From contig JAUWKS010000093.1 in NCBI GenBank assembly GCA_030614005.1, positions 1 to 10,638 on the forward strand: 10,638 nt of DNA, written 5' to 3'. The notes beneath the pieces were generated by a model. That model was not told the origin of the DNA. It was given only the letters and a program-made list of their open reading frames with translations, and did no database searches. Every line of letters begins with the position of its first letter. The first letter of the stretch is position 1. This DNA comes from Candidatus Heimdallarchaeota archaeon. Its GTDB lineage: Archaea > Asgardarchaeota > Heimdallarchaeia > JABLTI01. The translations under genes were made by a program, and so were the position numbers. This document shows, in pieces, positions 6,846-6,984 of the stretch.

Positions 6846-6984
6846 CTGGCCCTAACTCAGCTTGGCTAGAGTGCTCGGCTGTAGACTTAGTTCGCTCCAA
6901 TGAACCGTGATTTGGAGTCAGCCCGTATTCGACTGCTAGACAGTAACCGAGATGCCCCGAGTTCAAATCTCGGGGGCCAGACCA
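6846..6984 (+). tRNA. trnY: tRNA-Tyr(GUA), archaeal type, with a 61-nt intron at position 37/38 and encoded CCA
   Basis: Acceptor CTGGCCC/GGGCCAG (C1-G72), discriminator A6981, CCA 6982-6984; D stem ACTC/GAGT; anticodon stem CTCGG/CCGAG, anticodon GTA 6881-6883; variable loop ATGCC; T arm CCGAG-TTCAAAT-CTCGG. Exons 6846-6884 and 6946-6984. Confidence 0.97.
6885..6945 (+). ncRNA. tRNA-Tyr intron with BHB splice motif and internal K-loop hairpin; candidate H/ACA-like guide RNA
   Basis: BHB: CUGU (6879-6882) pairs with ACAG (6940-6943), with bulges AG^A and UA^A. Stem CUCCAA/UUGGAG is capped by U.U, tandem sheared G.A/A.G and loop ACCGU. The intron itself is near-certain; the confidence value is for the guide function. 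Confidence 0.65.

Follow-up and report, generated by a model that had tools for sequence, protein, structure and literature searches.

Introns in tRNA-Tyr genes are universal in eukaryotes and widespread in archaea, and it has long been asked why they are retained. For eukaryotes a single reason is known: without the intron, pseudouridine at position 35 (Psi35) cannot be formed. The maker of Psi35 is Pus7/TruD, both in Pyrococcus and in eukaryotes. Here we analysed a stretch of 10,638 nucleotides of a Candidatus Heimdallarchaeota archaeon, an Asgard archaeon (contig JAUWKS010000093.1; hereafter the window), which bears a tRNA-Tyr gene with an intron. An earlier note, made from the letters of the sequence, had recognized inside this intron a hairpin of the K-loop type that is bound by the protein L7Ae. 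This raises the question of whether the hairpin is genuine and of what an L7Ae site might do in a segment that is discarded by splicing.

The tRNA-Tyr(GUA) gene occupies positions 6846-6984 of the forward strand and consists of a 5' exon (6846-6884), an intron of 61 nt (6885-6945) and a 3' exon (6946-6984) with an encoded CCA. Reading of the sequence shows that the gene is interrupted after nucleotide 37. The bulge-helix-bulge (BHB) geometry supports a canonical 37/38 intron, with a central helix formed by CUGU (6879-6882) and ACAG (6940-6943), bulges at 6883-6885 (AG|A) and 6944-6946 (UA|A) and an outer helix between 6886-6890 and 6936-6939. In archaeal BHB introns a 4-bp helix lies between two 3-nt bulges and the cuts fall after the second base of each bulge, and this arrangement was found here. 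When joined, the exons (6846-6884 and 6946-6984) form a 78-nt tRNA with C1-G72, A73 and the encoded CCA, which ARAGORN calls tRNA-Tyr(gta).

Rfam searches at gathering and at permissive thresholds returned nothing relevant for the gene or its intron, and ARAGORN without its intron option detected no tRNA in the gene region. With the option, the gene was misnamed tRNA-Asn(gtt) and the intron displaced by two bases. In practice the gene is thus either overlooked or misnamed. ARAGORN with the intron option also labelled an unrelated tRNA on contig C1 'tRNA-Tyr(ata)', and the two errors together would lead to an automatic annotation in which the genome is without tRNA-Tyr. A second, degenerate tRNA-Tyr copy with an intron was observed on another contig of the genome (G000 contig C77, 21379-21513; locus L020). 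It has the anticodon AUA, lacks the 5' acceptor strand and has a broken K-loop stem, with ATGA and ATGATGA retained; it is probably a pseudogene. In the same genus, some tRNA-Tyr genes bear a second intron, of ~30 nt after the variable region (L006 and L008) or of about 25-30 nt inside the T-arm (L009 and L011), and this second intron is absent from the present genome.

DNA of the window occurs in sequencing runs from cold seeps and marine sediments, and among the listed matches to the 140-nt gene there was no RNA run. One oligo-dT RNA library of sediment (X20) yielded a contig of depth 2 on window positions 6861-6931, derived from a close relative and with one base missing at 6891. It is unspliced, running from the D-arm through the K-loop and intron into exon 2. 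It may represent precursor RNA or DNA carry-over and says nothing on circles or stability.

The hairpin spans positions 6894-6918 of the forward strand and was delimited by sequence reading and conservation. Its 'GA stem' comprises 10 layers, namely six Watson-Crick pairs (6895-6900 with 6912-6917), U6901.U6911, the tandem sheared pairs G6902.A6910 and A6903.G6909 and, at the base, G6894.U6918. The pairs and the ACCGU loop (6904-6908) given in the earlier note, from C6895-A6900/U6912-G6917 up to the A.G layer, are all present. The features of a K-turn or K-loop are found one after the other: the tandem GA lies directly beside the closing loop, the 3b.3n position is U6901.U6911 and is followed by a regular helix of six covarying Watson-Crick pairs, and the last loop base is a U after a purine (G-U here; xAU, xGU or similar in nearly all orthologues).

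A hairpin of this class, defined as at least 6 pairs, an N.N position, tandem GA/AG and a loop of 3-9 nt, was contained in 0.22% of 200,000 shuffles of the intron, and the same class occurs at 0.006 per 61 nt in the present AT-rich genome. Finding one by chance is modestly unlikely (about 0.002-0.006 per 61 nt), which is suggestive only. When loops of up to 25 nt were allowed, such hairpins became common: the genome contains 2721 of them, which is no more than about 1.5 times what shuffling gives. Given this modest chance rate a single sequence is no more than suggestive, and conservation across orthologues is what decides.

Orthologues were gathered within the Asgard phylum by BLAST and with two covariance models. 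Matches to the covariance models in the pre-tRNA-Tyr region were found in at least 60 of 82 genomes of the same class. A second class, which is Loki-like, gave at least 110 of 151 genomes, and a third at least 3 of 19. These counts are lower bounds, since four genomes missed in the first model search turned out, when inspected, to have a K-turn or K-loop hairpin; a later model (R2) recovered three of them (G016, G026 and G047) and again missed G022. The matches listed from a scan of genome contigs with a 15-base pattern were all chance matches in bacteria.

A covariance model of orthologous introns had been suggested in the earlier note as a check, and the tandem GA motif proved to be kept without exception in the 62 distinct pre-tRNA-Tyr orthologues, which represent at least three Asgard classes. 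Position 2n is A in a few Loki-type sequences among them; a K-turn with that substitution has been shown to be bound by L7Ae (PMC3985660). In two families with 16 sequences in total, the tandem G.A/A.G never varies (16/16), and three stem pairs are changed on both sides. The stem covariation score for these 16 sequences was 0.283, against 0.076 in shuffles, with 0/500 shuffles reaching 0.283 and every slid register scoring worse; as the orthologues are related and not independent, such permutation figures overstate the significance.

The geometry is fixed as well. Over the 62 sequences the apex is either a K-loop or a true K-turn, the two forms interchanging between lineages; the true K-turn form, found in other classes, has a C-stem of 2-4 bp and a 3-nt bulge ending in U, followed by the GA. 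U is the last base of the bulge or loop in almost every sequence. The stem keeps its length while its sequence covaries: 40/62 have 10 layers, and the other 22 have 9 and a 1-nt bulge. Its closing pair is G.U in 57/62. Fixed geometry, conservation and covariation together make a strong comparative case for a functional K-turn, and hence for a predicted L7Ae site, in the tRNA-Tyr intron. By this comparison 6894-6918 is a genuine K-loop of the L7Ae type, to which L7Ae, the gene for which is present in the genome, is predicted to bind, so that the conserved tandem GA and the covariation bear out the first description of the hairpin. Its likeness to boxes C' and D', also remarked upon in that description, holds at the sequence level, as a sister family has the exact CUGA...RUGAUGA; the A-U pair taken to replace the usual C-G stands too, the sister family having C-G where the present genome has A-U.

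Conservation extends to both flanks of the stem. On the 3' side, the sequence CAGCC (6919-6923, forward strand) directly abuts the stem and is complementary to G30-G34 of the anticodon arm (6877-6881). Position by position, CAGC(C) is paired with G34-G31(G30) in 62, 62, 61, 62 and 48 of the 62 sequences, and 17 of the 18 substitutions in the four CAGC positions retain a wobble pair. This register is 88% paired, compared with 0-37% when the strand is slid by -2 to +2 and 63% for the strongest control (-3). Because G31-G34 are invariant, this key 3' pairing is beyond support by covariation; covariation of nucleotides 27-29 with the 3' flank was not significant phylum-wide in the 62 sequences.

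On the 5' side, positions 6884-6893 of the forward strand form a mini-hairpin that contains the 5' splice site, with the pairs G37 (6884)-C6893 and A6885-U6892 and a loop at 6886-6891. Every one of the 62 sequences has a C immediately before the stem, and this C pairs with G37. The second pair, which involves the first intron base, is formed in 61/62 (as A:U, U:A, G:C or G:U) and the third in 44/62. The mini-hairpin comprises 2-4 bp, and its loops are of 3-7 nt, several being GAAA. The two pairs that follow G37-C covary, and 0/5000 permutations of partners reach the observed pairing, a figure likewise inflated by kinship. U35 and A36 (6882-6883) are the only unpaired nucleotides of the resulting three-way junction.

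The family of the present genome has a further extension of the 3' flank, GUAUUC (6925-6930, forward strand), complementary to nucleotides 22-27 (6869-6874), that is the 3' strand of the D-stem, G26 and C27. All 6/6 pairs are formed in each of the 11 sequences of the family, and two divergent members show compensatory changes between the intron GURUUC and nucleotides 22-27. This pairing would need the D-arm to be opened. In the same family the BHB helix draws on a 3' segment of its own, and CAGCC is nonetheless unchanged. Since the conserved flanks pair with the gene's own exon (nucleotides 31-34 and G37, and in this family also 22-27), the comparison points to a role of the module in the unspliced precursor rather than after excision. 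In another family of the same class (locus L014) the tRNA-Tyr intron is built differently, with a GGC-CAAC-GCC mini-hairpin beside a K-turn-like hairpin and, in place of CAGCC, a 3' strand that is a repeat of the anticodon sequence CUGUAGAC.

The arrangement resembles a known type of RNA pocket. A 'GA stem' of 10 is found in all crystal structures of H/ACA ribonucleoproteins (RNPs) and in their productive folds (PMC4652768). In Sulfolobales, an H/ACA RNP pairing across the intron produces Psi35 in pre-tRNA-Tyr, as reconstituted in vitro (PMC2651775) and confirmed by deletion of the guide in vivo (PMC11077068). In the present intron the K-loop lies in an upper stem with 10 layers from the pocket to the second G.A (8-11 are expected, and 10 is productive). 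The helix between nucleotides 31-34 and CAGC and the G37-C pair leave U35 and A36 unpaired at the base of this stem, in cis. Relative to the target nucleotide N, the 3' duplex ends at N-1, the 5' duplex starts at N+2 and the K-turn lies about 10 layers above. CAGCC may thus act like the 3' guide of an H/ACA pocket, and the mini-hairpin takes the place of the 5' guide-substrate duplex. Genes for Cbf5 and Nop10 are present in the genome, together with a weak match to Gar1. The pocket geometry, the precedents in Sulfolobales and the four protein genes lead us to read the K-loop as the L7Ae anchor of an H/ACA-like element aimed at U35.

A lower stem of 7-9 bp and an ACA or ANA box 14-16 nt from the pocket, as in ordinary H/ACA RNAs, were not found in the intron. 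Its ACA at 6940-6942 lies 21 nt from U6918, belongs to the BHB helix and is GCA in most relatives. A canonical H/ACA structure using the outer BHB helix as the lower stem and this ACA was therefore rejected, for its spacing (21 nt vs 14-16), its very short 5' pocket strand and the poor conservation of the box. A K-turn between the anticodon loop and GUCAGC was also rejected, as C occupies position 2n, where G is required. What the intron does have, a K-turn hairpin with single-stranded guide flanks, corresponds to the atypical H/ACA-like RNAs. RNAs with neither lower stem nor ACA work with the ordinary proteins (PMC4652768; PMC11077068), and they are pseudouridylated in cis in their own 5' region after forming a duplex of 2-4 bp with their own 3' guide (PMC11077068). 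The proteins of Pyrococcus are reported to accept atypical guides (PMC11077068). The genome scan for bona fide H/ACA sRNAs was too noisy to provide comparators, its best candidate (contig C5, 41309-41333) lying inside the coding sequence of a GTPase.

In the mechanism that we propose, the hairpin would be the apex of a conserved module of Asgard tRNA-Tyr introns which, in the unspliced precursor, would adopt a fold alternative to the BHB. The 10-layer stem would stack on the helix between CAGCC and nucleotides 30-34 of the anticodon arm, while G37 and the first intron bases would form a small hairpin ending at the stem base. U35 and A36 alone would stay unpaired, as in a one-chain version of the substrate-loaded H/ACA pocket. 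L7Ae, Nop10, Cbf5 and Gar1 would assemble on this module, U35 would be converted into pseudouridine, the fold would then switch to the BHB and the intron would be removed, presumably in that order. With its K-loop and a fold-back that leaves U35 and A36 unpaired, the intron probably helps to modify its own tRNA. To the specific reading as a cis-acting, atypical H/ACA-like guide for Psi35 we assign a probability of about 0.5, L7Ae binding and modification being predicted from sequence. Several points weigh against it. The intron has neither a lower stem nor an ACA box at the usual spacing, the key 3' pairing is beyond support by covariation, the 5' duplex is just 2-4 bp and takes the form of a hairpin, a hypothetical arrangement for Cbf5, and Pus7, able to make Psi35, is present in the same genome.

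The pocket fold (nucleotides 30-34 with CAGCC) and the BHB fold are mutually exclusive. When nucleotides 27-43 were constrained to one or the other, the two folds were nearly isoenergetic (-16.6 kcal/mol for the pocket and -17.4 kcal/mol for the BHB), and the unconstrained optimum of the present genome (-18.2 kcal/mol) includes the pocket helix. Among the 62 sequences, 24 have the pocket helix in their optimum and 38 the anticodon stem. In short introns of 45-50 nt (L161, L163, L190, L192 and others) the central BHB helix must use GCCG of CAGCCG, with a U33.C mismatch, which amounts to the pocket pairing shifted by two bases. There the BHB strand overlaps the pocket strand, so that one strand serves both folds.

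This overlap favours a purely architectural role, in which L7Ae on the K-loop would stiffen and bend the intron for the endonuclease, or protect the precursor, and the conserved flanks would serve the splicing fold. K-turns with L7Ae are described as general architectural elements of archaeal RNAs (PMC5539422). The present family, however, retains CAGCC despite having a BHB strand of its own (6940-6943). In most short introns the C opposite U33 is a mismatch in the BHB register, whereas in the pocket register it finds a partner in G30. Moreover, the mini-hairpin puts the 5' splice site inside a helix and not in a bulge, and a mere clamp would need neither a stem of 9-10 layers nor a G.U closing pair nor an invariant C. 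We regard an architectural or splicing aid as the sole function as unlikely.

The presence of Pus7 suggests another use of the same fold. Its gene lies on contig C20 of the genome (G000, 51603-52871; locus L022, 1456-2724), and Pus7/TruD is present in 144/151 genomes of the Loki-like class. The protein looks catalytically intact: motif II reads TKDKTAHT, with the catalytic Asp kept and a basic pair K-T instead of RH or KR, and the basic residue of motif IIIa is kept, so that only the second residue of the motif II pair is lost. In Loki-class homologues the pair is K-Q, K-E or N-H. Loss or decay of Pus7 as a correlate of the module was rejected, given the TruD gene here and in the 144/151 Loki-class genomes and the conserved Asp. 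The alternative fold could thus expose U35-A36 as a two-base bulge to Pus7, with L7Ae as a clamp, as an archaeal counterpart of the intron-dependent Psi35 of eukaryotes. The near universality of Pus7 in these genomes fits such a presentation. We know of no Pus7 substrate that needs a K-turn, however, and the Pus7 consensus spans nucleotides 31-37, which are base-paired in the alternative fold. The observed spacing, with 10 layers and pairing up to N-1 and from N+2, follows instead the rules of Cbf5 RNPs. Eukaryotic Pus7 needs the intron for Psi35 in pre-tRNA-Tyr (cited in PMC2651775); the P. abyssi enzyme requires A36 and works without the intron, which speaks against an archaeal Pus7 in need of such a device. 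Presentation to Pus7 seems improbable to us.

Stable circles of excised tRNA introns and of guide RNAs exist in several archaea. The earlier note had favoured an intron that persists after excision, probably as a circle, as an L7Ae RNP. Such an RNP might act in trans, with rRNA or other tRNA molecules as its guide targets, for example. The module would outlast excision intact. Its flanks, on the other hand, are complementary to the exon of the same gene. The mini-hairpin covaries with the first bases of the intron itself and not with A38-C39 of the mature tRNA, and the pairing with nucleotides 22-27 covaries with the host tRNA. We consider this persistence in trans to be as improbable as presentation to Pus7.

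Archaeal pre-tRNA-Trp introns hold a complete C/D sRNA (C, D', C', D) that directs 2'-O-methylation of nucleotides 34 and 39. With this intron-borne cis guide as a precedent and with C'/D'-like boxes that are exact (CUGA and RUGAUGA) in the sister family, a half-guide recruiting Nop5 and fibrillarin to the K-loop for 2'-O-methylation of an anticodon-loop nucleotide might be envisaged, but it is very improbable: terminal boxes C and D are absent from all orthologues examined, upstream of the D'-like box lies, over 10 nt, a stem strand that covaries with its partner and therefore cannot be a conserved guide, and the only conserved single-stranded complementarity is of 4-8 bp and on the wrong side of the boxes. 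An ordinary archaeal C/D sRNA was rejected likewise, with no terminal RUGAUGA or CUGA near either intron end in the present genome or its orthologues and no guide of 10-12 nt upstream of D', and the membership of the hairpin in a C/D-type guide was not borne out. The likeness to the tRNA-Trp intron is of a more general kind: both have an L7Ae-binding guide module, here a predicted one, in a 37/38 intron, aimed at the anticodon arm of its own tRNA, and in both the guide fold and the BHB fold exclude each other. Unlike the tRNA-Trp guide, the present element has an internal K-loop only and an H/ACA-type geometry.

The reading as an H/ACA-like cis guide for Psi35 combines elements that are each of a known kind, namely intron-borne cis guides, H/ACA-guided Psi35 and atypical H/ACA RNAs. 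The Psi35 H/ACA sRNAs of Sulfolobales and Aeropyrum (Sso1, sR115) act on the same nucleotide in an intron-containing precursor, pair, in some cases extensively, with the part of the anticodon stem-loop that lies 5' of U35, and have a K-turn at a fixed distance above the pocket (PMC2651775; PMC11077068). In contrast to them, the present element lies within the intron of its substrate, is without lower stem or ACA and has a hairpin as its 5' duplex. The atypical H/ACA-like RNAs of Pyrobaculum and Sulfolobus islandicus, a type reported from Crenarchaeota only, are likewise single K-turn hairpins with single-stranded flanks (PMC4652768; PMC11077068). They are active with standard Cbf5-Nop10-L7Ae-Gar1. 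They are free sRNAs with mainly rRNA targets, whose self-modification is without known function, whereas the cis target proposed here is a functional anticodon base of a tRNA and the element itself is discarded by splicing. The eukaryotic system concerns the same tRNA and nucleotide and requires the intron (cited in PMC2651775), but its enzyme acts alone, and neither a K-turn nor a guide RNP is involved; an evolutionary link to it is speculation.

In the literature searched, the coverage of which was limited, we found no description of a K-turn, an L7Ae site or an H/ACA-like element in a tRNA-Tyr intron or in any Asgard tRNA intron, nor was such an element found described in a 2026 preprint on Asgard tRNA introns. 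Even without a role in modification, a K-turn conserved phylum-wide in a tRNA intron would be a new predicted client of L7Ae. Tentatively, and at somewhat less than even odds, we suggest that Asgard archaea install Psi35 of tRNA-Tyr through a self-contained H/ACA-type pocket in its own intron. If true, this would be the first intron-borne, cis-acting guide for pseudouridylation, a counterpart to the C/D guide of the tRNA-Trp intron, and a third route to Psi35 besides stand-alone Pus7 and the trans-acting H/ACA guide. It would also extend the atypical H/ACA RNAs beyond Crenarchaeota. Asgard archaea are closer to eukaryotes than any other archaea, and they retain an L7Ae-type module of precise dimensions that frames exactly U35-A36. 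The proposed guide would give the tRNA-Tyr intron a concrete function and explain its phylum-wide retention, and it could be ancestral to the eukaryotic situation, in which Psi35 of tRNA-Tyr depends on the intron.
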